Shown here in pieces: positions 8,336 through 64,000 of a DNA stretch of 64,000 nt. A program made the position numbers and the translations under genes. Position 1 is the stretch's first letter, and every line of letters begins with the position of its first letter. This DNA is from Vallitalea okinawensis. GTDB lineage: Bacteria; Bacillota; Clostridia; Lachnospirales; PQDH01. The notes beneath the pieces were generated by a model. That model had not been told where the DNA came from. It did not search any database and saw nothing but the letters and a program-made list of their open reading frames with translations. The stretch is from NCBI RefSeq assembly GCF_002964605.1, contig NZ_PQDH01000002.1:541090-605089 (forward strand), written 5' to 3'.

Positions 8336-8336
8336 C

Positions 8337-23595: not shown

Positions 23596-23602
23596 CTATT
23601 AT

Positions 23603-30906: not shown

Positions 30907-30930
30907 TATTATCTACCTCATCTATATACA

Positions 30931-30969: not shown

Positions 30970-30989
30970 TATATTTTCCTTGATTCAAC

Positions 30990-35619: not shown

Positions 35620-35823
35620 GATAAAGCCCCCTATATAATCTTATTTTTTCTTGTGTATACTCTCAACCTCTCTATATACGATTCTCAAAAGTAATTTTTT
35701 TATATCATTAGTCATGTTATCAAAATAAGTCGATTTTAAGTATAATTAACTTGATATTAGTCATCAATGTTGTATAATAATTATATAACTTATGCTACTA
35801 AATTGATTAAAGAGGTGGTTACT

Positions 35824-42013: not shown

Positions 42014-42038
42014 AATTCCATCTCCTTATGAATCTAAT

Positions 42039-43478: not shown

Positions 43479-43518
43479 AATAGCCTCCTAAATAATTGAA
43501 TATCTTAATCTATGATTA

Positions 43519-44319
43519 TTATCTAACTAAATAACCACCATCAACATTGATCATGGCACCATTTACATAATCAGATGCTCTACTTGCTAAGAAAACACAA
43601 GTCCCCATTAAATCCTGCGTCTCCCCCCATCTGTTCGCTGGTATATGGTCGAGTACACGCTTGTTTGTTTCTGGATTTGATCTTGTTGCAGTTGTTAACT
43701 CTGTTGCGTAATACCCAGGAGCAATACCATTGACTTGTATGTTAAATTGAGCCAACTCATCACAGTATGCTCTCGTAAAACCCAATAAGCCTGTTTTTGA
43801 AGTTGCATAAGCTGGTGACCACTGACCTCCAAGATAAGAGAACATTGAACCAATATTTATGATTTTTCCTGAACGTTGTGGAATCATGTACTTAGCTGCT
43901 TCATGAGCTAATTCAAATGCAGCTGTTAAATTTACGGCCAACATTTTATCCCACTCTTTTCGAGTGAACATTGTTACATCTTCAATATTGATGCATAATC
44001 CAGCTGAATTCACAAGTATGTCAATAGAACCGAAAGTTTCGACACAGGCATCAATAATTCTCTTTGGTGCTCCTTCTTCTGTTATGTCAACTTCCATAAA
44101 ACCCATTTTTTGTCCAGTTTCTTCGATTAATTTTTGAGTAGTTCCGTCATCTGACATAAGACTGGGTATAAATACATTAGCTCCTGCTTTTGCAAGTGCT
44201 AGAGCAAAGGTTTGACCTAAACCAGTATTTCCTCCAGTAACAATGGCATTTTTACCTTTTAATGAAAAGAAATCAAGTGAAAAATCTTGAATATTAGTAC
44301 TCATAAAACTACCTCCCAA
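43519..44319 (-). CDS. SDR family oxidoreductase, KduD-like (2-dehydro-3-deoxy-D-gluconate 5-dehydrogenase family)
   Basis: LKGKNAIVTGGNTGLGQ, NSAG, and the YATSKTG catalytic YxxxK. Confidence 0.75.
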   Translation of the reverse strand: MGGSFMSTNIQDFSLDFFSLKGKNAIVTGGNTGLGQTFALALAKAGANVFIPSLMSDDGTTQKLIEETGQKMGFMEVDITEEGAPKRIIDACVETFGSIDILVNSAGLCINIEDVTMFTRKEWDKMLAVNLTAAFELAHEAAKYMIPQRSGKIINIGSMFSYLGGQWSPAYATSKTGLLGFTRAYCDELAQFNIQVNGIAPGYYATELTTATRSNPETNKRVLDHIPANRWGETQDLMGTCVFLASRASDYVNGAMINVDGGYLVR

Positions 44320-44516
44320 TTTAAATTTGAATATTTGAATAATTAGTAATTTTTTGTATCAAAAAAGAGAGCATAAAAAAAACCAAATTTCACAAATAAA
44401 ACACAACAAAAAGTGTCTTTTTGTTAAATTTGATTACTTTTCTCTGCTCTCTAGTAATCTAGGTATAAGTCTATCATAGCATATTGCTGTTGTCAAGCAC
44501 TAATCGACTGTTTTTT

Positions 44517-45455
44517 TTATAGGATTTGAATAACCTCATACATATCCGCTAAAATAGGATAGTGTGCTACACTAAACATTCTACAATCTTTATCAGTATT
44601 AACAGCAATAATTGTATCAGCACTTCTAACTCCTGAAAGAAATTGTATGGAGCCGGATACACCAAATGTTATTAATACTTTTGGACTGATATAACTACCT
44701 GAAAGACCAATTTGCTTATCCCCTGGCATGATCCCTCTTTCAACAAGCGCTCTAGTACTACATAAAACTCCACCAATACTCTCGGTAAATGCTTCAAAGG
44801 GTTCAATATCCTTTTTATTCTTTATGGCATTACCAACAACCACCACAAAATCATACTCTGAAATTTTTCGACTGCTTTTTTTGACAGTCGTATTCATTAT
44901 CTCATAAGAACTTCTGGGTAAAATAGAACCACTCATTAATATTGGTTTATATTCTATTTGCGGTCTATAGGGCTGAAAAGTATTAGGTCTAATAGTAGCC
45001 ATTTGAGGTCTCGCAAATTCAGTAATAATCTCTGCGATTATGTTACCACCAAAGGCAGGTCTTATCTGAATAATCCTTCCCTTCTCATCCATTTGAAGGT
45101 CCGTACAATCAGCTGTCAAACCTGTTTCCAATATCCCACTAGCCAATGCAGCTGTGGATTTACCGATAGGGGTCCCACCAATTAGTACAGCACTTGGACT
45201 TAATAACCTAACAGCATCAACAAAGCAATCTGCATAGATCTTGGAGTCAAAAGAATCTAAACCTTCGAAATAGACAATCTTATCAAAGGGTAGAAAATTC
45301 AACTCTTTCTCTAATTTTTTAATACTTTTTGTAATACATACACCATAAATCTTATCCATCTTAAGTTCTAAGGATTTTTGAACTATTTCATAGACCACTT
45401 GACTAACTTTTTCATTATCGTTTTCAATTAAAATCAATACACTATTATTCATCAT
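44517..45455 (-). CDS. etfA: electron transfer flavoprotein alpha subunit, second copy
   Basis: 312 aa. PKVLITFGVSGSIQFLSGVRSADTIIAVNTDKDCRMFSVAHY FAD-binding block. Confidence 0.85.
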   Translation of the reverse strand: MMNNSVLILIENDNEKVSQVVYEIVQKSLELKMDKIYGVCITKSIKKLEKELNFLPFDKIVYFEGLDSFDSKIYADCFVDAVRLLSPSAVLIGGTPIGKSTAALASGILETGLTADCTDLQMDEKGRIIQIRPAFGGNIIAEIITEFARPQMATIRPNTFQPYRPQIEYKPILMSGSILPRSSYEIMNTTVKKSSRKISEYDFVVVVGNAIKNKKDIEPFEAFTESIGGVLCSTRALVERGIMPGDKQIGLSGSYISPKVLITFGVSGSIQFLSGVRSADTIIAVNTDKDCRMFSVAHYPILADMYEVIQIL

Positions 45456-46224
45456 TGTTAATCCCCAATCCGTTGTATATTATATTTTTTACTTCTACAA
45501 GGGGAACACTTAAAACATTGTTTTTAGCCATCAGCTTCTTTGAATAGACTTTACTTACCTTTGTTGGTGAACCTTTAATACCTATAGATTTATGATCATA
45601 ATGGGAACTCAAACTGAAGTGATTGATTTCCTTCTTCTTAGCTTGTATCTTCAATTTCAATGATGCTAGCCTTGATATATATATATCCTTTTCCACAGCA
45701 ATCAAACAAGGCAACTGACATTTTATTGTCTGTATCTTTGTTCCTAAATCTTGTCTAACAATAATATAGGCTTCGTTAATCTCTACAATTTCACAGACAT
45801 TTCCAATATACGGTACATCTAACCTCACTGAAATGGATGCGCCAACTTGACCCGTATCACCATCGGTTGTTTGTTTTCCGCAGATAATCAAATCATAATC
45901 ATCAGCGATTTCAATGGATTTAGCGATAGTGTATGCTGTAGCAAGTACATCCGAGCCAGAAAATGCTTTATCACTAATAAGATAACCATCATCAGCGCCA
46001 AGAGCATAACACTCTTTGATAGTCTTTTCTGCTCGCTTAGGTCCCATGGAGAAAACATCAACATGGGAATCTGGTAATCTATCCTTAATTTGAAGTCCAG
46101 TTTCTACTGCTACAAGATCATAAGGGTTAGTCGTAACCCCTAGAGTCTTTCTGTCCAAGTTTCCAGTTTGAAAATCCATTCCCTTGTCTTGATTATTAGG
46201 CACCTGCTTAACACATATAGCCAT
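45445..46224 (-). CDS. etfB: electron transfer flavoprotein beta subunit, second copy
   Basis: Start placed at the internal ATG (MAICVKQVPNN...), which matches the canonical EtfB N-terminus. The ORF track extends to 46257. Confidence 0.75.
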   Translation of the reverse strand: MAICVKQVPNNQDKGMDFQTGNLDRKTLGVTTNPYDLVAVETGLQIKDRLPDSHVDVFSMGPKRAEKTIKECYALGADDGYLISDKAFSGSDVLATAYTIAKSIEIADDYDLIICGKQTTDGDTGQVGASISVRLDVPYIGNVCEIVEINEAYIIVRQDLGTKIQTIKCQLPCLIAVEKDIYISRLASLKLKIQAKKKEINHFSLSSHYDHKSIGIKGSPTKVSKVYSKKLMAKNNVLSVPLVEVKNIIYNGLGINNDE

Positions 46225-46653
46225 TTTCAAACCCAATTGCAAACACTCCTCTCTCAATTATACTTTCAAGCTGATTATATTCTTGAAAAGTTTTTATGTC
46301 AATCACTAATTCTTGTATCTCTGGAATTATTCTCATCCATTACATGGCCTTTAAGTTCTTTATAAGCATTCACTTTTGCTTCATATGTTCATCATTTAGA
46401 CAACAAGAAAAGTGACTACCATCACGTTCCAAGTATGTGCAGGAAAGTGCGATTTCTTATAACTTTAGTAATAGAGTACTCATATGACTTTTTTACAACC
46501 TACACTATCACATTTATCACCTATGACAGATTTTAATTAGTCTAAATATATGATAAATTAAGGCACAAGAAATGATAAGTGATATAGGAGCCAAATAAAG
46601 AAAACACATATTAGCAAAGAAATACTATACATAATGATTAAAGGAGAGATAGT

Positions 46654-47805
46654 ATGTTATCTAAATATTTCATGTTAACTTGGCTAATTCTAAGTATACT
46701 TTTATCAGTAGGATGCAATAATGTAAGTGCAAATCAAGATTATGAGGAAAATTACCCTGAAACTTTGAAAGATAGTTCAGAATATTATTTCCCCCATGAA
46801 GGTGCAGAGCATGAAGGAACCTGGCTTCAATGGCCTCATGATTATACTTATAGCGGTGTGATTCAGGTCTATGAACCCATTTGGATTGAAATGACAAGAG
46901 GTTTAGTAAAGGGTGAAAATGTGCATCTCATTGTTTATGATGAAAACGAGAAGGAACGGGTTAAAGAAGTATTAGAAAATGAAAAGATTGATATGAATAA
47001 GATAGATTTCTATATCTTTCCCTCAGATGATGTCTGGATTAGAGATAATGGACCTATATTTGTATATGATCAAGAAGGCAATCTACTCATCCAAAATTGG
47101 CAGTTTAATGGGTGGGGAAACAAGGCACCTTATGAAAAAGATAATCTTATACCAACAAAAATAAGTGAAGCTATAGGCATTCCAAAGATAGATATTGACA
47201 TGGTAATGGAGGGAGGGGCCCTTGAATTAGATGGTAATGGCACCTGTATATCCACATTAAGCTGTGTAAATAATGATAATAGAACACCTGATTTTACTAT
47301 CGAAGAAATCGAAGAATACCTTACAAAATATTATGGAGTAACTAATTTTATTTGGCTCGATGGTGTAGCAGGTATGGATATTACTGATAACCATATCGAT
47401 GGTATGATAAAAATGTTTAGTGATAAAATCATTATCGCAGATTCTGAATTCGATCTAGATCCTTCTGAATTGTCCGATGATGATGATGCAAAAAAATTAT
47501 TAACCGCTAAAAACATCTACGGAGAGCCTTATGAATTCGTGTTTCTTCCATCAACTAAAGACACTGTTGTTGAGGTAGATGGTGAAAAGATGAAAGGTTC
47601 ATATTTGAACTTCTATGTCGGTAACAAAGTAGTATTAGTGCCCAATTATGATGATGAAAATGATACCATTGCAAATCAAATTCTTCAGGAATTATATTCT
47701 GATCGAGAAGTCATAGGAATTGACGTAAGAGACTTATTTGCTGATGGTGGTATGATTCACTGCGTTACGCAACAACAACCCCTACCAAAGTTACAAGAAA
47801 AGTAA
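46654..47805 (+). CDS. secreted agmatine deiminase / porphyromonas-type peptidyl-arginine deiminase family lipoprotein
   Basis: Lipobox LSVGCN. DVWIRDNGPIFV, HIDGMIKM and C-terminal GGMIHCVTQQ (catalytic Cys) are signatures of the PAD_porph/agmatine deiminase family. Confidence 0.8.
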   Translation: MLSKYFMLTWLILSILLSVGCNNVSANQDYEENYPETLKDSSEYYFPHEGAEHEGTWLQWPHDYTYSGVIQVYEPIWIEMTRGLVKGENVHLIVYDENEKERVKEVLENEKIDMNKIDFYIFPSDDVWIRDNGPIFVYDQEGNLLIQNWQFNGWGNKAPYEKDNLIPTKISEAIGIPKIDIDMVMEGGALELDGNGTCISTLSCVNNDNRTPDFTIEEIEEYLTKYYGVTNFIWLDGVAGMDITDNHIDGMIKMFSDKIIIADSEFDLDPSELSDDDDAKKLLTAKNIYGEPYEFVFLPSTKDTVVEVDGEKMKGSYLNFYVGNKVVLVPNYDDENDTIANQILQELYSDREVIGIDVRDLFADGGMIHCVTQQQPLPKLQEK

Positions 47806-47852: not shown

Positions 47853-48851
47853 TTGATTCACCCCTATATGATACAATATCTCTTGTGCAGAGGATTATTT
47901 ATAGGGGTGAATTTTTTGGAGAATCTACTCTTTACATACAATATCATTTTAACAATTTTTTTTACTATTGCTCTAACAGGCTATTATATTGTCTATATGA
48001 AAAGTAAAAGAAGAGGATTTTTATTTTTGTCATTACTTTTTTTCCTTATGATCATTGATAATTCCATTATATATATCTCAGAGTTTTCATCGAGTTTTGG
48101 TTCGTTGTATGAAACTAGCGACATTCTCTATATCGTTATTGACTTAATATATTTCGGGATAATAGTAACTATAAGGTTAATCATCTCACACTTATTTCAA
48201 GATCCATTTACGACTAGGGAAAAACAACTCTGTATAGTGGTACCGATTATCTTATTAATATTGAGTATAGTGGCTCCTTTTCAAGTAAGTGAACTTCTGA
48301 TTTATTTATCTTTTTATGCAACACTTTCTTATTTGGCATTGAGACTCTACAGACATATGAACTGTAACACTGAAGAATTTAGCGAAAGACGATCAAAGGC
48401 ATATAGCGTTTTTTTGTTTGTAAGTATTCTATTAAGCTTCCTAGGCATTGTTGAATCAGGCTTTTATTTTATGTCTTATTTAAGTGATCCATACCTAAGC
48501 TCTTCTCCATTGTCATTAGAGTATAGGAGTGTAGCCTTTGATATCATAAAACTATTGATTTTCGTTATTGGAATCAAAAATCTATATAACTGCTTCGAGA
48601 ATCTCTTTGATCAGAAAGATGTCAGTGATAAGAGTACAGATGAGAAACTGAATGAATTTTGTATAAAATATTCTTTGACCAGTAGGCAAAGAGAAATAAT
48701 TGAATTAATCATTGAAGGATATTCGAACAAAGAAATTAGCACCAGTCTACATATTACAGAAGGAACTGTAAAAACACACATATATAATATTTTTAAGAAA
48801 ACTGATATATCGAGTCGAAATCAAATAATGAAAAAAATAATGCAGGATTAA
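47853..48851 (+). CDS. membrane-anchored LuxR-family transcriptional regulator
   Basis: About 6 TM, then the C-terminal LuxR HTH LTSRQREIIELIIEGYSNKEISTSLHITEGTVKTHIYNIFKK. Confidence 0.65.
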   Translation: MIHPYMIQYLLCRGLFIGVNFLENLLFTYNIILTIFFTIALTGYYIVYMKSKRRGFLFLSLLFFLMIIDNSIIYISEFSSSFGSLYETSDILYIVIDLIYFGIIVTIRLIISHLFQDPFTTREKQLCIVVPIILLILSIVAPFQVSELLIYLSFYATLSYLALRLYRHMNCNTEEFSERRSKAYSVFLFVSILLSFLGIVESGFYFMSYLSDPYLSSSPLSLEYRSVAFDIIKLLIFVIGIKNLYNCFENLFDQKDVSDKSTDEKLNEFCIKYSLTSRQREIIELIIEGYSNKEISTSLHITEGTVKTHIYNIFKKTDISSRNQIMKKIMQD

Positions 48852-48892
48852 TAAAACTCATCAGTATAATTAAACCTTTTTCTTAGTAATTT

Positions 48893-48946
48893 CAAGCCCA
48901 GATTAGTTCTAAAAAAATTAGAATTTAATCTAGGCTTTTTTTATAC
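48893..48946 (+). terminator. rho-independent terminator after the LuxR-type gene
   Basis: Imperfect stem AGCCCAGATTAGTTCT / AGAATTTAATCTAGGCT, followed by TTTTTTTAT. Confidence 0.5.
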
Positions 48947-49180
48947 AATTGAACTTCATCCTACAACTATTATCTCAGATTAGCTATTATCAGTGGTTTA
49001 AGCCCCTATCACTTTAGTTATAGCATATCCTTTATAACTTTTTTAAACTATCTTTATCAAAAAATCATACTTTCAACAGATTTTAATGATCGTGAATTTT
49101 TGCTATATTTGACTTAGCTAGATAACATATAATTCATTGGATTAAAAAATCAAAATACTAATTCTAAAGGAGATGAGAGG

Positions 49181-50263
49181 ATGACAAAGACTAGTTATTT
49201 TATAGATGTTATTACAAATGACTACGGTCAATATATAAAAAAACAGTCAAAAGAACGCATTCAAACATTTGATTTTATTAGAGGATTAGCAGTCTTCTTT
49301 ATGGTTATTGTTCATGTATTAATGACTTATGGAACGGATGATGTCAATAGTTCTTTTTTTGGTGGTGTTATAGACTTTTTTGGTGGACCGCCAGCAGCTC
49401 CTGTTTTTATGTTTTCAATGGGTGTATTTTTTATACTTTCCACTCGCTCAAGTAATCTCAAAGCTAGCGTCAAAAGAGGTATTACGCTACTTCTACTAGG
49501 CTATTTACTGAGTTTTTTAAGAACTGACTTACTTTTGTTGATAGAAAACTATCTAACTCAAAAACATTTGACTAGCGTTCAACTCTTTACTCTTTGGGAA
49601 GTAGATATCCTTATATTTGCAGGCTGGGCATATATCCTGATGAGTATCATTAGATTTTACTTTAAAAAACCAATTTGGTGGTTATTTATAGCCATAATGG
49701 TGTTGATTGCTAGTCCATTCTTATGGGGTATATCGTCAGATATTAAGATTGTAGATTGGATTTTTAATTTTCTTTGGGGTAATAGAGAAGAGGTCTACTT
49801 TCCTATATTTGGATGGCTGTTTTATCCATTAATTGGTATGACTTTGGGAGTATTAATGAAAGCTTCTTCTGATATAGAGACTCTATTTAAATCCCTCTTA
49901 AAAGTAGGTTTATCTCTTCTATTTGTTGGTAGTATCATAACTGCTACCAATTTTGATTTTCACATTGGCGATTATTATAGAAGCGGACCAGGTTCAATGA
50001 TTTGGATTATGGGATTTGTTTTCATTTGGTTATGGTTATGCCACAAAACGATTAACAAAATTAGAGACATTAGACTCTTTAATATCATATATTATTGGGG
50101 CAAAAATACTCCTTTAGTATATTTCATTCACTGGTTATTAATTTCATGGGGAACCATCCTATTGGGATATGAAGCATATGGCTATTTAGGTACTGCTCTG
50201 TTAATGGGATTGTTTTTAATAGCGACACACTTATCAACCAAGGTCATTAAAGCAATTACATAA
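49181..50263 (+). CDS. DUF1624 / heparan-alpha-glucosaminide N-acetyltransferase (HGSNAT)-like polytopic membrane protein
   Basis: 360 aa, about 10 TM. N-terminal RIQTFDFIRGLAVFFMVIVHV resembles the conserved start of DUF1624/HGSNAT-like acyltransferases. Confidence 0.5.
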   Translation: MTKTSYFIDVITNDYGQYIKKQSKERIQTFDFIRGLAVFFMVIVHVLMTYGTDDVNSSFFGGVIDFFGGPPAAPVFMFSMGVFFILSTRSSNLKASVKRGITLLLLGYLLSFLRTDLLLLIENYLTQKHLTSVQLFTLWEVDILIFAGWAYILMSIIRFYFKKPIWWLFIAIMVLIASPFLWGISSDIKIVDWIFNFLWGNREEVYFPIFGWLFYPLIGMTLGVLMKASSDIETLFKSLLKVGLSLLFVGSIITATNFDFHIGDYYRSGPGSMIWIMGFVFIWLWLCHKTINKIRDIRLFNIIYYWGKNTPLVYFIHWLLISWGTILLGYEAYGYLGTALLMGLFLIATHLSTKVIKAIT

Positions 50264-50317
50264 CTTTCAGTATTCGTAGATGAATTCACTCTATGCCTAC
50301 TCACATAGTCTATTAAC

Positions 50318-50355
50318 CCAACCTATTTCAGTCAAAGTCTTATGAAATAGGTTGG
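50318..50355. terminator. hairpin between the convergent DUF1624 and ACP-AOS genes
   Basis: 13-bp perfect stem CCAACCTATTTCA / TGAAATAGGTTGG. Weak T-tracts. Confidence 0.45.
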
Positions 50356-50379
50356 TCACTTACCTGCAGTATTTTAATT

Positions 50380-51954
50380 TTATACTACATTTTTTAGTCT
50401 AGTCAATTGATATGTATTTTCTTTAATTAAGTTAAATAAAATATCAATGGCTTGATCAATTTGCTCTGGTCTATGCATACTTGTTAAGCAAAAGCGAAGC
50501 CTTGCTTCCCCCATTGGCACAGCAGGATATATGGCAGGAGGGACAAACACTCCTTTTTGAAGCATTTGATTGGATAATTCACATGCTAACCCCTCATCAC
50601 CAATTATAATTGGAACAATGGCCGACTCCTTAGCTAAACCAGTATCAAAACCTTTATGATGAGCAACCTTTAGAAAGTACTTAATTGACTCATGTAGTTG
50701 TTTAACCAACGTATTATCCTTTCGTATATGTTTGATGGCTTCTAGGGAAGATGCAGCAAGTATAGGGCTAATTCCTGCTGCAAATACAAAGCCTGGAATA
50801 CAATACTTTAAGTAATCAATCAGACTATAACTTCCTGCTATGTATCCCCCACAAGTTCCTACTCCTTTAGACAATGTACCCATTTTAATATCTATATCAT
50901 TTGGCATTAAGCCAAAATATTCATCTACACCATTTCCCCTTTCACCAATAACACAGGAAGAGTGTGCTTCATCTACCATTAAGAAACATTGGTGTTTCTT
51001 TTTTATATAAACAAAATCTTTCACTGGTGCTATATCTCCATCCATTGAATAGACACCTTCAATGACAATCAATACCTTTTCGTAGTACTTTCTATTTTTT
51101 TCTAACAGTAAATCAAGTGTTTTAAAATCATTGTGCGGGAAAGATCTTGCTGTAGCATCTGATAATTTGCATCCTTGAATGATAGAGTTATGAGAAAGTG
51201 AATCATACATAATCAAGTCATTGTCATTACATAAATTCCCAATAACTGTTGTATTTGTTGCATTACCAGACACTAAAACAATTGCATCATCTGCATGCTT
51301 CCAATTTGCAATTTCCCGCTCCAATTCTATGTATAAACTCTTCTCACCTGCAAGAATTCTACTACCACTTGAGGATGTCCCATACTTCTCAGCTGCATCT
51401 TTAGCAGCCTTAACTGTTATCGGATGTCCAGACAAGCCAAGATAATTATATGAACCAAAATTAAGTACTTCTTTACCATTTATAATAGAAGTATCTCTTA
51501 CAACAGAATCATGAGGTATGAAATAAGGAAGTTCTACATCACCTAGAGCTTTCTTTTTCGCAGTTAATTCCATATATTCTCTAGAATTCTCAAATAAGGA
51601 TACAGGGATTATATCTTTTCCTTTATGATGCTCACTATGTAATTCCCTACCATATTTCTTGTAATAGATTTGCTTAGCGATATCTTCTACAGAATATTTA
51701 TTTGTATACTCAATATTATCTAACATTAAATCTAATTCACTCTCAAGTGCCATAACAATTTCTAAACTAGTGAGACTATCGCACAAAAGGTCATTACTAA
51801 AACTTGAACTGGCTGCAATCTCATCCATACCAATACCTAATTTATCCGAGCATATCTTTCTAACTTTCTGTAAGATCTCATCGTAATATAGATTGAATTC
51901 CTCTTTACAATCTTTTATTAAGTTTTGTCTGTTCGCTTTATTTACCATAACCAC
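50380..51954 (-). CDS. acyl-carrier-protein domain fused to an alpha-oxoamine synthase (serine palmitoyltransferase / AONS / KBL family, PLP-dependent)
   Basis: 524 aa. N-terminal about 80-aa ACP-like domain with phosphopantetheine-site motif LLCDSLTSLEIV. The class-II aminotransferase body has VLNFGSYNYLGLSGHP, SGNATNT, DEAHSSCVIGERG and PLP lysine TLSKGVGTCGGY. Confidence 0.8.
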   Translation of the reverse strand: MVMVNKANRQNLIKDCKEEFNLYYDEILQKVRKICSDKLGIGMDEIAASSSFSNDLLCDSLTSLEIVMALESELDLMLDNIEYTNKYSVEDIAKQIYYKKYGRELHSEHHKGKDIIPVSLFENSREYMELTAKKKALGDVELPYFIPHDSVVRDTSIINGKEVLNFGSYNYLGLSGHPITVKAAKDAAEKYGTSSSGSRILAGEKSLYIELEREIANWKHADDAIVLVSGNATNTTVIGNLCNDNDLIMYDSLSHNSIIQGCKLSDATARSFPHNDFKTLDLLLEKNRKYYEKVLIVIEGVYSMDGDIAPVKDFVYIKKKHQCFLMVDEAHSSCVIGERGNGVDEYFGLMPNDIDIKMGTLSKGVGTCGGYIAGSYSLIDYLKYCIPGFVFAAGISPILAASSLEAIKHIRKDNTLVKQLHESIKYFLKVAHHKGFDTGLAKESAIVPIIIGDEGLACELSNQMLQKGVFVPPAIYPAVPMGEARLRFCLTSMHRPEQIDQAIDILFNLIKENTYQLTRLKNVV

Positions 51955-52170
51955 TTAGCTCCTCCCTAAATTATTACGTATAATACTCCCTAATCTTACT
52001 GTTTGTAGCATTACATAAACAAGATTTATTTTCATTATTTACCATTTTACACTTATATTGTATGTTTTGCAACTTCTTTTTTTGCTATTAATTATGAACC
52101 ACTAACATCCTTCTTGCCCATCCTTCACATATAACCTAAAGTAATAACCTTATATTTTGTCACATAGACT

Positions 52171-52525
52171 ATTTATGTTTTCAATGGGTGTATTTTATAT
52201 ACTCTCTTCAAAGTAAAAGAGTCTAAAAGCTGGTTTGGGAGTATTAATGAAAGCTTCTTCTGATATGGACACTCTATTTAACTCCCTCTCAAAAGCAGGT
52301 TTATCTCTTCTATTCGTTGGTAGTATCATAACTGTTACCAGATTGGATTATGGGATTTGTTTTCATTTGGTTATGGTTAAGCCACATGACGATTAAAAAA
52401 GTAAGAGAGAATAGACTCTTTAATTTCATATATTACTAAGGCAAAGAAACGCCAATTTATTTTTCATACACTGACTTTAATTTCATGGGGAACCATCCTA
52501 TTGGGATCTGAAGTTTATGGATCCT
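52171..52525 (+). pseudogene. decayed partial copy of the 3' half of gene 49181..50263 (DUF1624-like), with internal deletions and a frameshift
   Basis: ATGTTTTCAATGGGTGTATTTT at 52171 matches 49407. GGAGTATTAATGAAAGCTTCTTCTGATAT... through ...TTAATTTCATGGGGAACCATCCTATTGGGAT matches 49846-50180 at about 85-90% identity, with a 50-nt deletion. No intact ORF. Confidence 0.6.
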
Positions 52526-52596
52526 CCCATTATCATGGTATCCAATGCTTCGTGGCACACATCTATTTGGTTACTCAATGGCTTGAACCATGCTCT

Positions 52597-52627
52597 AAAA
52601 GAACTATAACATAATAGTTATAGTTCT
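52597..52627 (-). terminator. terminator hairpin after the PHP-domain gene
   Basis: 11-bp perfect stem AGAACTATAAC / GTTATAGTTCT with loop ATAATA. Followed on the minus strand by TTTT. Confidence 0.4.
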
Positions 52628-52702
52628 TTATTAGTGCGTCTTACTTAGCTATGGATGCTGTTCATTACTTATAATTAAGGTGATGTTTATCGTAGTTACA
52701 GG

Positions 52703-53662
52703 TTAAAGAAAGATTGGGTTGGTCCATGCGGTTTTTCCATAGATATCTTTACATTCTATACGGACATATAGCTCACTACCATCTAATTGATGTGTTGCCT
52801 TTGTCAAAGTATTTCCTGCTGCTATCTCCATTTGGGATCTTTTTTTATACGTAATAAAGTTTATGCTTTGAACAGGTGAACACTCAATATATACTTTACC
52901 TTCTATAACGCCATAATCGTATATTTCAGGTCCACATGAAGAATAAAATCTTCCTTCTAAAAGAGCATCTGCGATTGCATCTTGTGTAAGTTCAGGAGCT
53001 TTAACACACACCCAACCCCCAAATGAATCACTTCTTGGGTCTGATTCATCAAACTTATTGTGGTTATCATCTGTAGCAATACCCCATATCTTTCTTCCCT
53101 CTCTCAGTAACATATCCCAAAAAACTGTTCCTCTACCATCATCATCTCCTACTCTTTCACAATTGTAATTATAAATTTCCATGGCAAAAAAACCATCTAA
53201 CTCCGAAATATCATCAAAATCTAATTGAGACCATATAGGATGATTTAGTATTACAAGATTCCCCTTATCTCTCATTTCATCAAAGAAAGCACTTTTAGCC
53301 TCATTGGAGTCTTCTATATCTAATTTTCTAATTCGAGTATTATGTTGCAAAGGGTCCTTTTTTGAATTTTTCTGAAAGGAATCTGACCCCTGTATGGCTT
53401 GATAATGATGTTTTTTCCCTTTATTAAGCATGCTAACACCAACTTCAACTGCAGGCATAACTATAAAATCTTCTGTATCAAATTCCTTAGTACAACTAAA
53501 TAATCCATGATCACTCAGTCCAAGAAAAGAATATCCTCTCTTCTTATACATTTCAACTATCTTAACCGGATCATGCCTACCATCTGATCTTGTTGAATGT
53601 GAATGTAAATTTCCCTTATACCAAGTACCTTCTACTTCAAATGGACATAAATTTGATAGCAT
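52703..53662 (-). CDS. PHP-domain metallohydrolase (CehA/McbA-like)
   Basis: N-terminal GNLHSHSTRSDGRHDP (PHP motif I) and GLSDHG (motif II). Paralogous to 56376..57356, with a shared C-terminus ...GKTAWTNP. Confidence 0.7.
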   Translation of the reverse strand: MLSNLCPFEVEGTWYKGNLHSHSTRSDGRHDPVKIVEMYKKRGYSFLGLSDHGLFSCTKEFDTEDFIVMPAVEVGVSMLNKGKKHHYQAIQGSDSFQKNSKKDPLQHNTRIRKLDIEDSNEAKSAFFDEMRDKGNLVILNHPIWSQLDFDDISELDGFFAMEIYNYNCERVGDDDGRGTVFWDMLLREGRKIWGIATDDNHNKFDESDPRSDSFGGWVCVKAPELTQDAIADALLEGRFYSSCGPEIYDYGVIEGKVYIECSPVQSINFITYKKRSQMEIAAGNTLTKATHQLDGSELYVRIECKDIYGKTAWTNPIFL

Positions 53663-53766
53663 ACGATCATTCCTCTCCCAGTGCGCAATGCACGAACTTT
53701 ATTAGATATTTATCCATTGTTTGAAGAAAAAGAACGATCCTTCGACCGTACTTTTCTTCTGGTTTA

Positions 53767-54894
53767 TTAAAATATATTATTTTCCCAACCAAGCAACTTT
53801 GCTATAGCTTCAATATAAAAGTAGTCTCCATAAATAAGCGAAACATTTACATTTTTATTTTTGACTCTATTTCCTACACCCTCACGAAGTAAGCCTTCAT
53901 ACTCTGGTTGGTCCCATGTTGCATAATGATTAGTAAGTGAATGAATGATCCTTTTTGCAGCTTTTTTATACATCCTTCCTTCTTGCTCTGGAAGATGATT
54001 GGCAATTTCAATTAAGCCTGATGCAGCACATGCTGCAGCAGATGTATCTCTAGGTTCTCCGTCAAAATTAGGAACTCTAAAATCCCAATATGGTACATAA
54101 TCATCAGGTAATGCAGCTAAAAAGAAATGTGCAACTTTTTGAGCTGCTCTTAGGTAACGTACTTCTCCTGTATATTTATATGTATTTGCCATACCATAAA
54201 TTGCCCAAGCTTGACCACGGCTCCAAGCAGAATGAGGATCATAGCCTTGTCCACCCAATGATTCAATAAATTCTCCACTCTCTGCATCAAAACTAGCAAT
54301 GTGGCATACTGAACCATCTTCTCTAATAAAGTTCTTTAATACCGTATCAGCATGAGCTTTTGCAATATGCTTAAAACGAGGGTCACCTATCTCCTCGGCT
54401 GCCCAAAATAGTAACGATATATTCATAGAAGAATCGATAATGGCCCAACCATTTTGATCATTCCATGCGCGCAAATAATTCCCCGCAATATTAAATCGTC
54501 CAGATAAGAAATTTGCAGCTTGGAGACCTCTACGTCTTGCATCTTGATCTCCTGTTATTTTATGTTTGATAACAGCTGTTGGTAGAAATTGAAAACCAAC
54601 ATCATGATGTAATCTGGACTCTTCAATAAAGCATTGCTCTATACGTACATCCCATTCCCAAGCAGCATTATGGTATTCTTTTTTCTTCGTCATATCATAC
54701 ATAATCCATAATATTCCTGGCCAAAAACCGGAAGTCCACCAGTCAACAGGGATATTATCATAAACACCCTCAGCTGAAACATGGGCAGATTTATTTTCTT
54801 TCACCATACGATCTATTTTTACTTGTAAAGCACCCCATAATTCCTGTAGATAACTATCAAATTTTTCAAAGTTATTAAATTCATTCATCATCAT
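53767..54894 (-). CDS. glycoside hydrolase family 88 (unsaturated glucuronyl hydrolase)-like
   Basis: 375 aa. DWWTSGFWPGILW and the overall alpha6/alpha6-barrel UGL pattern. GH105 cannot be excluded. Confidence 0.7.
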   Translation of the reverse strand: MMMNEFNNFEKFDSYLQELWGALQVKIDRMVKENKSAHVSAEGVYDNIPVDWWTSGFWPGILWIMYDMTKKKEYHNAAWEWDVRIEQCFIEESRLHHDVGFQFLPTAVIKHKITGDQDARRRGLQAANFLSGRFNIAGNYLRAWNDQNGWAIIDSSMNISLLFWAAEEIGDPRFKHIAKAHADTVLKNFIREDGSVCHIASFDAESGEFIESLGGQGYDPHSAWSRGQAWAIYGMANTYKYTGEVRYLRAAQKVAHFFLAALPDDYVPYWDFRVPNFDGEPRDTSAAACAASGLIEIANHLPEQEGRMYKKAAKRIIHSLTNHYATWDQPEYEGLLREGVGNRVKNKNVNVSLIYGDYFYIEAIAKLLGWENNIF

Positions 54895-54918
54895 TTTCTC
54901 CTCTTAATAAAATTTATT

Positions 54919-56337
54919 TTATTCAAAATTAACCCAATCACCATGGCTTGCTCCCCATTGCTTACATTTATCATGTAAAGCAATAACTAACTTCTCATAA
55001 TCCTTTTCTTCTGCTATATTAAACATTTCATGTGGATCCATCAATAAATCATATAATTCTTGCTCATTACTGCCATCATAAATGTATTTATAACGCGATG
55101 TAATAATAGCTCGCCGAACATAGCCTAGTGAAGGATTACCGGAATATTGACAAAAAACTTGTCTATCTTCCTCCTTATTTTCATAATCAATAAGATGTTT
55201 TACTGAAGCTCCATCCAAACACTCATCATGGTTAATTTCTAATAGATCAAGCAAAGTAGGCATGACATCCAAATGAGATACAACAGTATTAATCTGTTTA
55301 TGTTGGACATTAGGTATCTTTATAATTAATGGTACTTTAATGGCCTCCTCATACATCTCCATCTTTTGGTACATACTATGCTGTCCTAAATGATCACCAT
55401 GATCAGCTGTAAAAACGATAATAGTATTATTAAGTTCACCTATAGTCTCAAGTGTATCGATCAAGTGCCCTATCTGCTCATCCACAAAGTGAACTAACCC
55501 TAAATGAGCTGCCCAAGCTTTACGCCATTCATCCATGCTTACACTTTCTGCTAGTTGAGCTGCTATACCATCCCTTCTGCTAATAGGTTCTTTTGATGAG
55601 ATTTTACCTACATTATCAGGCAATGTGATTCGCTTAGGATCAAACTTGTATGCATGAGGTTCTGGAACGATAAGTGGTGGATGGGGGGCCCAAAAATAAG
55701 TGAAAAGTGCAAAAGGTTTCTTATGATTTTGCTTTAGAAAATCTATACTTTCTTCGCAGAAATAACAATCACGAAAATCCTTAACATCGTGTGGCCATAC
55801 TGATGTCCTGGAATTAGAATACTTCTTTCTATAGCGCTCTCCTGTATCCTTTTGTTCCCACACTTCTTTCTTATGATCAAGGCTTTGGCTTGAATTAATG
55901 CCTTTTGATTTCAGACCTGACATATGATCTTTTTGAGTAACCCATTTCTTAAAGGATACTCTATCCTTTAGTGATGGTTGGGTACGTATATGATCGACTC
56001 CCACATGAGCCATTTCATATCCTGCTTCATACAAATATTCATGTATTGGCTTATGATTACCAGCTTTTACGCCCTCCCAATCATTATAGACAATACTATT
56101 ATTAGTGGGGTACCTGCTTGTAGCCAATGCCGTCCTAGCTGGCACACAAAGAGGACAGGCATTATATGCTCGATTAAACACAACCCCTTTAGCTGCAAGC
56201 TTATTTAAGTTAGGTGTAACTTCCATTCCATCCTGAATCATACCTATACTATCAGCTCTCTGATGATCCGTCATAATAAACACAACATTAGGTTTTTTCA
56301 ATAATACTTCACTCCTCACAAAACTCGTTATTACCAA
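54919..56337 (-). CDS. formylglycine-dependent sulfatase
   Basis: 472 aa. VVFIMTDHQRADSIG, CxPxR motif in CPLCVPARTAL, FTADHGDHLGQHSMYQK. Confidence 0.85.
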   Translation of the reverse strand: MVITSFVRSEVLLKKPNVVFIMTDHQRADSIGMIQDGMEVTPNLNKLAAKGVVFNRAYNACPLCVPARTALATSRYPTNNSIVYNDWEGVKAGNHKPIHEYLYEAGYEMAHVGVDHIRTQPSLKDRVSFKKWVTQKDHMSGLKSKGINSSQSLDHKKEVWEQKDTGERYRKKYSNSRTSVWPHDVKDFRDCYFCEESIDFLKQNHKKPFALFTYFWAPHPPLIVPEPHAYKFDPKRITLPDNVGKISSKEPISRRDGIAAQLAESVSMDEWRKAWAAHLGLVHFVDEQIGHLIDTLETIGELNNTIIVFTADHGDHLGQHSMYQKMEMYEEAIKVPLIIKIPNVQHKQINTVVSHLDVMPTLLDLLEINHDECLDGASVKHLIDYENKEEDRQVFCQYSGNPSLGYVRRAIITSRYKYIYDGSNEQELYDLLMDPHEMFNIAEEKDYEKLVIALHDKCKQWGASHGDWVNFE

Positions 56338-56375
56338 TTAAGCTACATACAAAAAACTATATAATTTATATTCAT

Positions 56376-57356
56376 TTATTTTTGAAGGATAGGGACTAGA
56401 TTATTTGTCCAGGCTAATTTCCCTTCTGCATCTTCAATTTCAATAAATAAATATTGTGTTTTTCCAATAAACCCTTTACCTTCAACTAAAAAGTCTATCG
56501 GAGCTAAATCAATACTTGAGGAAGTTAGATTGTCGCCCCTTTCTATTTTTAAGAGATCTTTATTTGCATAAAAACGTATGTAACTCACAGATGAACACTC
56601 CATATATATTTCGCCATTAATAATCTCTAAATGTCTTATTTCTGGGCCCATTGAAGCGTAATACCTACCATTTTGAATACTAGAAAATATTTTATTCTTT
56701 GTTGAATCGTCTGCCTGAACTGAAATAAATCCACCTATATGTCTGTCGACTAGCTCAATTGATGGCTTTATATACTTTACTTTTTCCTTAGCATGAAAAT
56801 CATCAGCGGATATAGCTAACAAATTGCATCCTTTTGCAAGTGCATAAGTATAATGGCTCAAAGCTACTCCATTATTTGCCCTTATACAGGAACCATGGTT
56901 ATACACTTCTATACTGGTTAAAGCTGTGAGTTTAAGTATGTCGTCATAATTTATGTAGGATGTGCGTGGATGATTAAGTGTGATAATTGCTTCTTCTATA
57001 GGCTCCAGAAATTCATTAAGTTCTTCATATGAATGAACATGATATTTAAAACCAGCTTCCCCCATAAAGTATCTATACCTTGTCTTTTCATCTTTAAAAA
57101 TGACATTAATGTGTATAGGAAGTTTCCTTTCAGATAAATAAAAAGTTAATTCACAACCACACAGCACAATTAGTTCCATAATTAATGCGTCAAAATTACT
57201 GATAAACCTATTATGGTCTGAGATGGCTAAAAAATCGTACCCTCTGTCTTTATATATTTTAAGAACTTCTTTAGGAGTATATCTACCATCAGAGAACGTT
57301 GTGTGGGTATGTGTTGACCCTTTAAAGAAGGGTTGATTTTTATCCAATATAACCAA
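56376..57356 (-). CDS. PHP-domain metallohydrolase (CehA/McbA-like), paralog of 52703..53662
   Basis: GSTHTHTTFSDGRYTP and AISDHN motifs. Similar C-terminus ...GKLAWTNN. Confidence 0.7.
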   Translation of the reverse strand: MVILDKNQPFFKGSTHTHTTFSDGRYTPKEVLKIYKDRGYDFLAISDHNRFISNFDALIMELIVLCGCELTFYLSERKLPIHINVIFKDEKTRYRYFMGEAGFKYHVHSYEELNEFLEPIEEAIITLNHPRTSYINYDDILKLTALTSIEVYNHGSCIRANNGVALSHYTYALAKGCNLLAISADDFHAKEKVKYIKPSIELVDRHIGGFISVQADDSTKNKIFSSIQNGRYYASMGPEIRHLEIINGEIYMECSSVSYIRFYANKDLLKIERGDNLTSSSIDLAPIDFLVEGKGFIGKTQYLFIEIEDAEGKLAWTNNLVPILQK

Positions 57357-57422
57357 TCTATTCGCCCCTATAATCTAAACTTTGCATTGCACTCTACCGC
57401 TCAATGCTTAACACTATCCCCT

Positions 57423-57737
57423 TTATATATCTAAATTATTGTGAAAGGTTATTCTATTACTGATTGCAAATCGAGTCAGCCCTTGCTTATATTCTTCGAA
57501 ATATTTTTTATTTTTTAATTTTGGATATAGAATGGGATGACTTGATTGAGATGTATTAATAACTATTCTCTCTGATGATACAACATTGAAATATCTAAAT
57601 TCTCGACATGGTTCAAAAATAATTGCTTGAATGTCCTCATAAGTCAAATTTAATGTCTTAACTTCTTTCTTTCCTGCAACAATTAAAACCAGCTCTGTTT
57701 TATCAAGCAGAATACGTCTTCCCTTCATGCCTTCCAC
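57423..57737 (-). CDS. hypothetical protein
   Basis: 104-aa ORF in an operon-like arrangement. No recognisable motifs. Confidence 0.35.
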   Translation of the reverse strand: MEGMKGRRILLDKTELVLIVAGKKEVKTLNLTYEDIQAIIFEPCREFRYFNVVSSERIVINTSQSSHPILYPKLKNKKYFEEYKQGLTRFAISNRITFHNNLDI

Positions 57738-57833
57738 CTCATTTATATATACATAGATTCATAACCTCTATTCAATTTCTAAGTTTCATTATCTTCATTA
57801 CCTCATTCTAAGCTTTTTATTACGGTCTATAAT

Positions 57834-58520
57834 TTACTCTGCCTTGATCTTATGGATTTGAAGATTTTCATATTCAGCAATTAGGGGTGCCATCTGTCTA
57901 AATCCAATCTTCCCATCTTTAAGAATATTACCATATGATTCCCCATCATCCTTCCACGAGAATAATTTAAGATTATTTTCATCGTTAGCTATGTAAAATT
58001 CCACGATAGAACCATACTTAACGATTTTAATCCTATAAGGACCTTGGGCTAAGTTGACTGATGGAATTGGATCTGCGCCCTGTGCTACTAAGTTAAAACC
58101 ATGGCTCTTTCTAAGATTGCACACATTGTATGATCTTTGTGCTCTTCGTCTGAAATAGGATACATGGAGAGCATTTATATCACTGCTATGATACTGTGGG
58201 TACATGCCTTCTCTTTTGCTTAAAGAGGGACTAAAAATACTTTCACCATTTCTCCCTTTAGCGGCAAAAAACATTATGGCTAACCCAACATCACTTAAAG
58301 GATAAAAATCCCAAGAAATCTCAATGTTATCCGGAAAATCCTTATCGCACCAGAACACAATATTTGATCGTTGTAATTCTGAGGGATCAAGGACACTTTC
58401 AAGTCTCATCCTTTTCATAGGAAAAGTTACAGCACCGAAACCCTCCATCTTAAAATCTTTAACATCTTCTTGACAGGATAACTTGTTCGAATAAATTAAC
58501 TCCGTTCTACTATATCTCAT
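57834..58520 (-). CDS. DUF1961 (YesU-like, concanavalin-like fold) protein
   Basis: 228 aa. Size and motifs such as ...KIGFRQMA... resemble YesU-type proteins found in Bacillus pectin/glycan loci. Assigned from memory. Confidence 0.45.
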   Translation of the reverse strand: MRYSRTELIYSNKLSCQEDVKDFKMEGFGAVTFPMKRMRLESVLDPSELQRSNIVFWCDKDFPDNIEISWDFYPLSDVGLAIMFFAAKGRNGESIFSPSLSKREGMYPQYHSSDINALHVSYFRRRAQRSYNVCNLRKSHGFNLVAQGADPIPSVNLAQGPYRIKIVKYGSIVEFYIANDENNLKLFSWKDDGESYGNILKDGKIGFRQMAPLIAEYENLQIHKIKAE

Positions 58521-58570
58521 ATTTTTACACCTCAGATAATAGATTTGTCAACATCTTGTGAAACCATGAT

Positions 58571-59641
58571 TCATGATAACTCTGAAATATCAGCATATAC
58601 CACTTCAACTTTATGATCATTGACTGGATGAACAAAATAAACTCTTTTACCATCTCTTGAAAACACAGGATTTGCGTGTGCACGCCCCTCCCAAACAGGA
58701 GTAGTATAATCACTACTATCAAGTACTGCTATAGGCTTTATCTCATGACATCTATATAAGTTGACCTCTACTGGTGCTTCATGATAAAAGTTATCACTTA
58801 CATACCATTTTTTATCTGGAGATAGGTCAATATGATTACCCTTTCCTGCCAATAACCTAATTTGATTTCCAGTTAAATCGTATTGATAGATCTTTCTATC
58901 ACTCTTATCGTTTTTATTAACAGCAATAATCGTATTGTCATCAAACCATAATTGATGTAAAGGTTTGTTTGGAATAATAAAGTGTTCATTCTTGGATAAA
59001 TCTTTAGTAACAATAACCTTGCATTCCTCTAAAACTAATCTGATCATGACTTTATCCGCTGATGGATTTAATTGAACATGAGACACACTACTATCATCTA
59101 TTGGTGTATAGCCTTTCTGTCGGATAAAATCAAAAATTTCACCTATTGGTACAAGTTTCTCTATTTTCATAGTCTTCATATCCAGTTGGTAGATACCGGG
59201 TTCATCAATATTTGAATGGTCACTATTATGTTTAATATGTTGCTCCTTTACAGCAAAGGGTATTTTGCTTTTTTCAGCTTGATGGCCTAAAGAAGCTGCA
59301 ACAGGTCCATACATAACTTCTTTTGAATGAACATTCATTACTGAAAACTGACTTATGCCCTCATTGCTGATTTCCTGAAAAATTATGTGGTCATTATCAA
59401 CCCATGATGTATCTGCTCCATTGTGTTGATTGATTAATACATCTGTGACTTTCATATGATTTTCGAGATCAACGTCGCATATCCATATTTCTAAATTTAC
59501 TGGTTTATTATCTTTTGACAAATCTTTAATTTTTGCATAACATAATCGTTTTCCATCTGGACTCTCTGGACAAGTGCCATTATAGCCCATTACTGTAGAT
59601 TCTTGCCCCTTGTAAATAGGTACTAATGTGAGATTTTTCAT
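58571..59641 (-). CDS. TolB-like beta-propeller protein, possibly an oligouronide lyase (PL22-like)
   Basis: 356 aa, beta-strand-rich repeats, cytoplasmic. The lyase call rests only on the neighbouring GH88 and the beta-propeller character. Confidence 0.4.
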   Translation of the reverse strand: MKNLTLVPIYKGQESTVMGYNGTCPESPDGKRLCYAKIKDLSKDNKPVNLEIWICDVDLENHMKVTDVLINQHNGADTSWVDNDHIIFQEISNEGISQFSVMNVHSKEVMYGPVAASLGHQAEKSKIPFAVKEQHIKHNSDHSNIDEPGIYQLDMKTMKIEKLVPIGEIFDFIRQKGYTPIDDSSVSHVQLNPSADKVMIRLVLEECKVIVTKDLSKNEHFIIPNKPLHQLWFDDNTIIAVNKNDKSDRKIYQYDLTGNQIRLLAGKGNHIDLSPDKKWYVSDNFYHEAPVEVNLYRCHEIKPIAVLDSSDYTTPVWEGRAHANPVFSRDGKRVYFVHPVNDHKVEVVYADISELS

Positions 59642-59667
59642 TATTTATCATCATTCCTTTCATTTTT

Positions 59668-61464: not shown

Positions 61465-61491
61465 TGCATCATCGCCTTTATACTAAAACTT

Positions 61492-63417: not shown

Positions 63418-63429
63418 CCTTTCAGCACC

Positions 63430-64000
63430 TTAAAACCATATTTTGATTGTCTTTATCTCGTAGGGTTTTATCTCTATTGGTATAGTATTAACTTTTACAT
63501 CAACACTACTTAATTCTTCTTCCATCATGGTACATTCATAGGCTTTCTTAATATTAAAGCATGTGGTTAGTAGAACTTCACTTCTTCTATTAAATGCCTC
63601 ATATAGTCTTATAATCAATGCATCATCATCTTCAGCCTTCTTTACGGTTTCAATAATGACATTATCTTGATCAACAGACATAAAGGAGAAATGATTTTCA
63701 ATCTGACCTTCTTGTACCGTTAATGTCTTCGTCATCAACTCAAAGTTCAAATCATAACCCATCTTATGGGTATTGGCTGATCTCCAGCCTTCTTTATGAG
63801 GATAAAGAGCGTATGTAAACTGATGAACTTCCCTATCTGCCTTATCATATGGAAACATACCTGACTTTAATAAGGTAAGTCGCATGGTGTTATCGTGTAT
63901 ATCGCAGCCATACTTTGAATCATTTAAAAGACTAACCCCATAGCCATCCTCAGAAAGATCCATCCACTTATGGCTACATACTTCAAAACGTGCTTCATCC
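63430..64000 (-). CDS. GH38 alpha-mannosidase, C-terminal part (gene continues beyond the window end)
   Basis: ...GYGVSLLNDSKYGCDIHDNTMRLTLLKSGMFPYDKADREVHQFTYALYPH... matches the conserved GH38 C-terminal domain. Reading frame is open to position 64000. Confidence 0.6.
   Translation of the reverse strand, partial: DEARFEVCSHKWMDLSEDGYGVSLLNDSKYGCDIHDNTMRLTLLKSGMFPYDKADREVHQFTYALYPHKEGWRSANTHKMGYDLNFELMTKTLTVQEGQIENHFSFMSVDQDNVIIETVKKAEDDDALIIRLYEAFNRRSEVLLTTCFNIKKAYECTMMEEELSSVDVKVNTIPIEIKPYEIKTIKIWF

Follow-up and report, generated by a model that had tools for sequence, protein, structure and literature searches.

The 64,000-nt stretch of Vallitalea okinawensis DNA analysed here (contig NZ_PQDH01000002.1 of assembly GCF_002964605.1; hereafter the window, numbered from its first nucleotide) contains an intact membrane acyltransferase gene and, beyond an unrelated opposite-strand gene, a short stretch that resembles several parts of it. 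The gene in between encodes an acyl carrier protein (ACP) fused to an alpha-oxoamine synthase (AOS) and is referred to as ACP-AOS. The best explanation as a whole, in which we place good confidence, is that positions 52170-52520 on the plus strand are the dead pseudogene relic of a second copy of the Acyl_transf_3/HGSNAT-like acyltransferase gene, with the intact copy 2.3-2.8 kb to its left. The relic is an ordinary product of duplication and decay, one of a familiar class, and was not left by a mobile element. A literature search turned up no work on this locus or on the genomics of V. okinawensis. The following features lie at the site:

49181 to 50263, plus strand: intact acyltransferase gene (360 aa, Acyl_transf_3/HGSNAT_cat, DUF1624-like), the parent or sister copy of the relic
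50264 to 50379, no strand: spacer of 116 nt that separates the ends of the convergent acyltransferase and ACP-AOS genes, from the coordinates of their open reading frames (ORFs)
50380 to 51954, minus strand: intact ACP-AOS fusion gene, 524 aa from GTG 51954
51955 to 52169, minus strand: ACP-AOS upstream region, GC 28%, with a ribosome-binding site (RBS) GGAGGAG at 51959-51965 and sigma-70-like matches running from 52072 to 52044 and from 52120 to 52091
52170 to 52520, plus strand: acyltransferase relic
52598 to 52629, no strand: AT-rich hairpin with 13 perfect bp, terminator-like for the minus-strand gene at 52703-53662, with TTTT after it on the minus strand
52703 to 53662, minus strand: gene for a CehA/McbA-family PHP metallohydrolase (NCBIfam NF038032, 97.6 bits, cut-off 80), the first gene of a sulfated-glycan cluster and the right flank of the relic

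The original prediction had described 52171-52525 as a degraded copy of the acyltransferase gene at 49181-50263, in direct orientation, with about 85-90% identity, an internal 50-nt deletion and no ORF. When the acyltransferase gene was run by blastn against the whole 64-kb window, the repeat proved to be real and far above chance. Gene nt 822-1001 matched 52343-52520 (85.2% identity, E 1e-47), gene nt 663-772 matched 52234-52344 (92.8% identity, E 5e-41) and gene nt 226-257 matched 52172-52203 (96.9% identity, E 2e-9), and the gene matched nothing else in the window. A repeat search returned the same blocks, which were collinear and on the same strand in both analyses, as predicted for direct copies. 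Using an affine-gap alignment, we defined five blocks:

Block A, relic 52170 to 52234, plus strand: gene 49404-49468 (nt 224-288, codons 75-96); 34/37 identical at the start and 49/65 overall, blastn E 2e-9
Block B, relic 52234 to 52340, plus strand: gene 49843-49949 (nt 663-769, codons 222-256); 100/107 identical, E 5e-41
Block C, relic 52343 to 52453, plus strand: gene 50002-50112; 96/111 identical
Block C', relic 52458 to 52476, plus strand: gene 50118-50136; 15/19 identical
Blocks C and C' together, relic 52343 to 52476, plus strand: gene nt 822-956, following a 50-nt frameshifting deletion
Block D, relic 52477 to 52520, plus strand: gene 50138-50181 (nt 958-1001); 41/44 identical

Identity between the copies was 89.9% over the 318 robustly aligned nucleotides and 87.0% when the first block was extended (346 nt), in agreement with the predicted range. 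Blocks A and B were joined across a net 375-nt (125-codon) in-frame deletion, at which the offset between the copies changed from 2766 to 2391, and the predicted 50-nt deletion was recovered between blocks B and C as a shift of the offset from 2391 to 2341. Similarity stopped 82 nt short of the stop codon of the parent gene, and none was seen past 52520. The relic has lost 223 nt at its 5' end, the 375 nt in frame, the 50 nt with a frameshift, and the last 82 nt of the gene. Three stop codons were present: a TAA at codon 90 in block A, and W306 and W318 each changed to a stop in blocks C/C', both of these being tryptophans that are invariant in ten homologues. The longest ORF in the relic was 53 aa (52235-52396), and the claim that the fragment carries no gene-sized reading frame was thus upheld. 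The marks of a pseudogene are therefore all found here, namely significant collinear similarity in four to five blocks, disabling lesions, and the loss of both ends.

The fragment had been taken for a copy of the 3' half of the gene, and this part of the prediction did not hold, as the relic also contains gene nt 224-288 and lacks the last 82 nt of the gene. Because nt 224-288 are retained together with nucleotides up to 1001, the second copy once covered most of the gene and not its 3' half, spanning at least nt 224-1001 of the 1083-nt gene (codons 75-334 of 360). The translation of block A (FMFSMGVFYILSSK*KSLKAG) agreed with the consensus of relatives. At the DNA level, block A was 78-82% identical over 62-64 nt to the genes of three relatives (L003, L014 and L013), compared to 75-78% over 60-65 nt for the adjacent gene.

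The relatives examined were two Wukongibacter assemblies (L002 and L003) and the metagenomic contigs L004 and L008-L021, with acyltransferases 50-67% identical to that of the window. The translated relic matched the adjacent gene at 85/111 codons, compared to at most 76/111 for any relative, and relic blocks B-D were only 72-85% identical to the relatives' genes at the DNA level. For the intact acyltransferase, no protein between 100% and 68% identity was found in 5.8 billion sequences. When compared with the window and the sampled relatives, the relic and the adjacent gene appear to be each other's closest relatives, which would place the duplication after the split from all sampled relatives. 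Since the adjacent gene is the closest by a wide margin, and two copies occur at none of the related loci, the second copy appears to have arisen by duplication within the V. okinawensis lineage.

We then polarised the 26 amino-acid differences between the two copies with nine relatives. Nine clear changes (F84, T88, R89, N92, S96, C287, D296, I297 and N309) fell on the branch of the intact gene, and at each of these sites the relic has the residue of the relatives; 11 clear changes fell on the relic branch, and 6 of the 26 were unclear. Residues S88 and G96 show no variation among the nine relatives, and the intact gene carries S88T and G96S. Derived residues of the intact gene at invariant or near-invariant sites were S88T, K89R, G96S, N297I and E309N, with the relic ancestral at all of them. 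These derived residues may reflect either divergence after the duplication or a recombinant history. Because ancestral residues are kept in the relic where the intact gene is derived, the relic is not a decayed copy of the gene as it is today, and both copies have diverged from a common ancestor. The description of the fragment as a degraded copy of the gene at 49181-50263 therefore stands in that it is a decayed duplicate of that membrane gene, but it was not derived from the present gene sequence.

The nucleotide differences between the copies were distributed as 8/14/23 over the first, second and third codon positions, a third-position bias (chi-square p=0.022), and the ratio of nonsynonymous to synonymous substitution rates (dN/dS) between the copies was 0.58. 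Furthermore, the relic branch carried at most 15 replacements, compared to approximately 24 expected if the copy had been neutral since its birth (Poisson p about 0.03). Because of the third-position bias and of replacements being fewer than the neutral expectation, past function of the second copy is favoured, and the substitution pattern suggests that it was a functional paralogue for part of its history.

The intact acyltransferase matched both PF01757 (E 2e-15, 57.4 bits, cut-off 31) and PF07786 (E 8e-15, 55.5 bits, cut-off 22). It was 100% identical to a V. okinawensis "acyltransferase family protein", with the next best match at 68% (Anaeromicrobium). Two further plus-strand genes lie to its left:

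46654 to 47805, plus strand: PAD_porph deiminase gene (agmatine-deiminase-like; Pfam PF04371, E 2e-89), with an N-terminal lipoprotein-type signal read from the translation
47853 to 48851, plus strand: gene for a protein with several membrane passes and a LuxR/GerE helix-turn-helix at its C-terminus (Pfam GerE, aa 274-326, E 2e-16)

The NCBIfam agmatine deiminase models matched the PAD_porph product below their cut-off. This protein was 62-76% identical to the copies in relatives, where its gene adjoins the GerE and acyltransferase genes in most of the loci L002-L019, and orthologues of the GerE protein likewise adjoin PAD and the acyltransferase. The cluster of PAD_porph, membrane LuxR/GerE regulator and acyltransferase is conserved in about 18 anaerobic Bacillota-like loci, in varying gene order, and some of the relatives' clusters add an RND pump and an adaptor. 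In the closest locus (L010, 67%), the three genes have the same order as in the window; a putative GNAT-like ORF comes next, and then an aminotransferase-like gene. None of the approximately 18 related loci had ACP-AOS, or a further copy of the acyltransferase, within its flanks. Since neither occurs in these loci, both are additions of the V. okinawensis lineage, and the duplicate acyltransferase, like the position of ACP-AOS, is peculiar to it. As regards the absence of ACP-AOS, the comparison with related genomes proposed in the original prediction came out in its favour.

Genes for a histidine kinase (46% identical), a response regulator (71%) and a Cu_amine_oxidN1 protein lie on the minus strand at window positions 19829-24676, 25 kb left of the PAD gene; of these, the kinase and the regulator (19829-22248) were identified by tblastn. 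Counterparts of these three genes follow the acyltransferase convergently in Wukongibacter (L003, 9298-14396) and in L004 (9193-11606). Because the three genes are 25 kb away in the window, one lineage or the other must have undergone a local rearrangement of gene order. A link between the HGSNAT-like gene and the adjoining sulfated-glycan cluster was also considered and dropped, as the orthologues in relatives sit with PAD and GerE and not with glycan-degradation genes.

Between the two acyltransferase copies lies, as predicted, the opposite-strand ACP-AOS gene, an intact minus-strand fusion gene of 524 aa. Its product has a PP-binding domain at aa 29-93, which carries the DSL serine motif, and an Aminotran_1_2 domain at aa 162-505 (PF00155 positions 2-360 of 361, E 1e-45). 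The full-length AOS domain aligned with solved BioF/KBL and serine palmitoyltransferase (SPT) structures, with the lysine motif TLSK for pyridoxal 5'-phosphate (PLP) conserved; the alignment to 8s1y covered aa 155-505 and placed TLSK on TLSK. Equivalog scores in NCBIfam were below the cut-offs for BioF (350, cut-off 426), Kbl (315, cut-off 460) and SPT (312, cut-off 640). From these matches, ACP-AOS belongs to the alpha-oxoamine synthase family, and by equivalog cut-off no specific enzyme (BioF, Kbl, SPT or CqsA) can be assigned.

The V. okinawensis protein P0121 in the NCBI database was 100% identical to ACP-AOS, with the next match at 56%. This entry is 522 aa long, which fits a start at ATG 51948, two codons inside GTG 51954; the GTG itself sits six nt after the RBS GGAGGAG. 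Hundreds of ACP-AOS fusions occur in Bacillota metagenomes at 48-56% identity. Homologues at 54-56% identity were found in three unrelated contexts, one with an overlapping upstream AMP-binding gene and none with an acyltransferase nearby, and a search of genome contigs with ACP-AOS matched only a Nitrospirota locus (37% identical). ACP-AOS is therefore not an ancestral neighbour of the acyltransferase. A functional link between the two genes was rejected, as they co-occur neither in the approximately 18 acyltransferase loci nor in the three ACP-AOS loci. In many ACP-AOS homologues, including that of L007 (6296-9548), an AMP-binding (acyl-AMP ligase) domain is fused to the protein or encoded next to it. 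The 64-kb window contains no AMP-binding gene, so the enzyme that loads the ACP is encoded elsewhere or absent.

The gene had also been credited with its own promoter region. One of the two sigma-70-like matches upstream of it, at 52072 to 52044, has the consensus-like form TTGCAA-17-TAAAAT, although in a promoter scan such matches were no more frequent than in shuffled sequence. The upstream minus-strand gene ends in the strong hairpin at 52598-52629, which also appeared as an inverted blastn self-match, and the RNA fold of 52560-52660 had an energy of -28.3 kcal/mol (z = -4.4). Because of this hairpin, a promoter of its own for ACP-AOS is likely, and given the consensus-like matches the gene probably uses one within 51955-52169. 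The claim of a promoter region is in this way backed indirectly, but at the level of a consensus match. The metallohydrolase gene that ends at the hairpin encodes a protein 100% identical to a V. okinawensis protein, and its best non-self homologue was 53% identical.

We also searched the spacers for further remains. No similarity to the acyltransferase gene or to the rest of the window was found by blastn in 51955-52169, and no repeat linked the spacer at 50264-50379 to other spacers. Six-frame translation of 50264-50379, 51955-52169 and 52521-52702 revealed no other gene relic, and tblastn of the same three spacers with the relatives' RND pump and adaptor and with genes neighbouring ACP-AOS elsewhere (DUF1622, AMP-binding, PHP) gave nothing. 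An Rfam scan of 48700-52900 found no family, with two sub-threshold chance matches only.

The position of ACP-AOS between the copies had been read as the footprint of an insertion or segmental duplication without any insertion sequence (IS) or integrase. A Pfam scan covered the ORFs of 120 aa or more across the window, except for three nested opposite-strand ones and the kinase and regulator pair identified by tblastn. It revealed no transposase, integrase or recombinase domain, and the absence of IS and integrase genes was thereby borne out. Apart from the acyltransferase repeat itself, no inverted or direct repeat pairs bracket ACP-AOS (50264-52170). GC content was flat across 49-53 kb; ACP-AOS had a GC of 0.338 and a third-position GC (GC3) of 0.242, compared to window means of 0.344 and 0.261, and its codon usage was the second most typical of 45 window ORFs. 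The proposed check of 50380-51954 for foreign composition was therefore negative, the gene being among the most typical in the window. No match was found in plasmid and phage DNA collections. The signs of an IS or transposon are missing, as there is no transposase and there are no terminal inverted repeats, and the repeat is hundreds of nucleotides long. We conclude that no mobile-element machinery was involved or survives, and that the event is old enough for the composition to be fully native. Of the predicted footprint, the duplicate is real and ACP-AOS is not an ancestral neighbour, but the typical GC, GC3 and codon usage give no sign of a recent insertion.

In the history that we find most plausible, two direct acyltransferase paralogues would have existed first, and both would have gathered mainly third-position and conservative changes while the second copy probably still worked. 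A later illegitimate rearrangement, in what is the most likely order of events, would have set ACP-AOS and its upstream region between the paralogues. This rearrangement would have taken away the first 223 nt and the promoter of the second copy and thereby killed it. The copy would then have decayed by loss of 125 internal codons, of 50 nt with a frameshift, and of its 3' end, and by gain of three stops. The relic itself is without function. Exact runs of 37, 33 and 31 nt are common to both copies, and such runs of 31-37 nt could mediate a rare deletion of ACP-AOS, which would leave the intact gene joined to the relic; in E. coli, comparable losses by way of direct paralogous repeats are on record (PMC13626634).

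Several points weigh against this reconstruction. The order of events is inferred and not observed; the nearest non-self proteins for the three genes around the site are only 68%, 56% and 53% identical, which leaves no close sister genome in which to look for an empty or a two-copy site. The flanks of the second copy are fully lost, and a true tandem arrangement cannot be shown. The signal of past function is suggestive, as it comes from 45 substitutions and from an assumed equal split of the synonymous changes. Furthermore, the gene-derived changes cluster in codons 84-96 and 287-309, while block B has only relic-derived changes (Fisher p about 0.05), and this uneven distribution could instead mean a mosaic or recombinant history.

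A different route to the same arrangement, which we consider unlikely, is a single tandem duplication of a 2.77-kb unit (49404-52169) running from acyltransferase nt 224 through the ACP-AOS upstream region. ACP-AOS would then already have adjoined the acyltransferase, the second unit would have lost everything from nt 1002 on, including a second ACP-AOS, and the second copy, truncated at its 5' end, would never have been functional. The geometry fits exactly, with the left edge of the relic (52170) at the junction and the spacing of block A (2766 nt) equal to the unit length. Duplication and deletions, both common, are all that is needed, and ACP-AOS shows no foreign-DNA signal. However, a copy truncated from birth predicts neutrality, yet there were 11-15 replacements on the relic branch compared to 9-10 on the intact branch; replacements in the relic were below the neutral expectation of approximately 24 and a third-position bias was present, a pattern that mildly contradicts this account. 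In addition, neither a second ACP-AOS nor the segment 50182-52169 has left a trace to the right of the relic.

It is very improbable, in our judgement, that foreign DNA carrying ACP-AOS integrated into the acyltransferase gene, either by site-specific recombination of the e14/icd type or by a single crossover of a circular molecule with an acyltransferase homologue. In such an event the incoming piece would have restored the gene and the displaced part would have been left as a fragment on the far side. An intact gene with a 5'-truncated direct repeat is indeed the geometry of E. coli icd/e14/icdC (PMC13626634), ACP-AOS is missing from this cluster in all relatives, and the mosaic-like spread of gene- and relic-derived changes would fit hybrid copies. 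Neither between nor near the repeats, however, is there an integrase or recombinase gene, the supposed island consists of one gene, and the fragment lacks the 3' terminus and stop codon of the gene and reaches back to nt 224. No compositional difference sets the region apart, no similar DNA was found in plasmids or phages, and the repeats are 10-13% diverged without a long identical core (longest exact run 37 nt). An e14/icd-type event is accordingly not what the locus displays, with no integrase between the repeats, a relic without the 3' terminus, and a composition that is not foreign.

A variant without an integrase, which we regard as speculative and about equally improbable, is that circular or linear DNA carrying ACP-AOS and an acyltransferase homologue recombined with the resident gene and produced a hybrid intact gene and a displaced copy. 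The repeats, or an antisense leader extending from the relic into ACP-AOS, might still couple both genes, and the coupling could run via recombinational loss of ACP-AOS or via RNA pairing with the acyltransferase mRNA. We give almost no credence to the idea that the relic was retained for a function, either as an antisense leader or RNA to the acyltransferase mRNA or as a 53-aa small membrane peptide (ORF 52235-52396), for although the minus strand of the relic, immediately upstream of ACP-AOS, is approximately 90% complementary to the acyltransferase mRNA, a weak promoter-like minus-strand match (52558 to 52529) stands upstream of it, and the 53-aa ORF survives, the stops at invariant residues and several deletions form a pattern of decay, promoter-like matches were fewer than in shuffled sequence, and no Rfam family matched.

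Apart from this locus, the window holds several other gene groups. The sulfated-glycan cluster to the right of the relic (52703-64000, minus strand) encodes two CehA/McbA-type PHP metallohydrolases, GH88, two SGSH_C sulfatases, DUF1961, DUF3604 and GH38 proteins. A second such cluster (6020-13072, minus strand) encodes GH31, a sulfatase and an ABC sugar transporter, alongside an AraC-type response regulator and a histidine kinase. An apparent three-gene operon occupies 25933-33577 on the minus strand. Its first product, 1657 aa long, combines DUF3686 ("ATPase involved in DNA repair") and DUF7902 with an AAA domain at the C-terminus; the other two are an SPFH/Band 7 protein of 676 aa and a protein of 186 aa without a Pfam match. 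The region 35767-46257 contains a gene for a GlpP-type glycerol-3-phosphate antiterminator, two FAD-linked oxidase genes and two electron-transfer-flavoprotein alpha/beta pairs, as well as genes for an FGGY sugar kinase, an MFS transporter and a short-chain dehydrogenase.

The reading of 52170-52520 as a decayed second acyltransferase copy matters mainly for annotation, as a previously unannotatable stretch is identified as a gene relic. It also shows that ACP-AOS was added, in this lineage, to a conserved group of genes for a deiminase, a LuxR-type regulator and an acyltransferase. The retained acyltransferase is altered at residues that do not vary among relatives, a hint that the copies diverged once the gene had been duplicated. 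As a lead, the three-gene cluster, found in about 18 loci of anaerobes, is more promising than the relic.

Compared with known systems, the product of ACP-AOS resembles other alpha-oxoamine synthases (BioF, Kbl, serine palmitoyltransferase and CqsA) in having a full-length PLP-dependent domain; unlike L007 and many database homologues, it has no acyl-AMP ligase partner in the window. As with an IS or transposon insertion, a gene that relatives lack at this site stands between direct repeats, but the repeat here represents about 780 nt of a gene, compared to a target-site duplication of 2-14 bp, and neither a transposase nor terminal inverted repeats are present.

In E. coli, icd and the C-terminal pseudogene icdC flank prophage e14 (PMC13626634). 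The present locus is similar in that an intact gene lies on one side and a direct-repeat fragment on the other, with non-ancestral DNA between them, and in that recombination between the repeats would remove the intervening DNA and form a chimeric gene. It differs in having, in place of integrase and prophage genes, one native-looking 1.6-kb gene between the repeats. The fragment here is without the C-terminal end and extends deep into the 5' half, the divergence between the repeats is 10-13%, and the chimera formed would be non-functional. The closest likeness is to bacterial pseudogenes formed by duplication and decay. Unlike the usual relics of this kind, the present one is separated from its partner by an unrelated opposite-strand gene, it is a patchwork of four to five blocks left after at least four deletions, and the surviving gene is itself altered at residues invariant in relatives. 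Like them, it is a direct-orientation copy near its parent, with 87-90% collinear similarity, stops, a frameshift, truncated ends and no ORF, and its nearest relative is the neighbouring gene.

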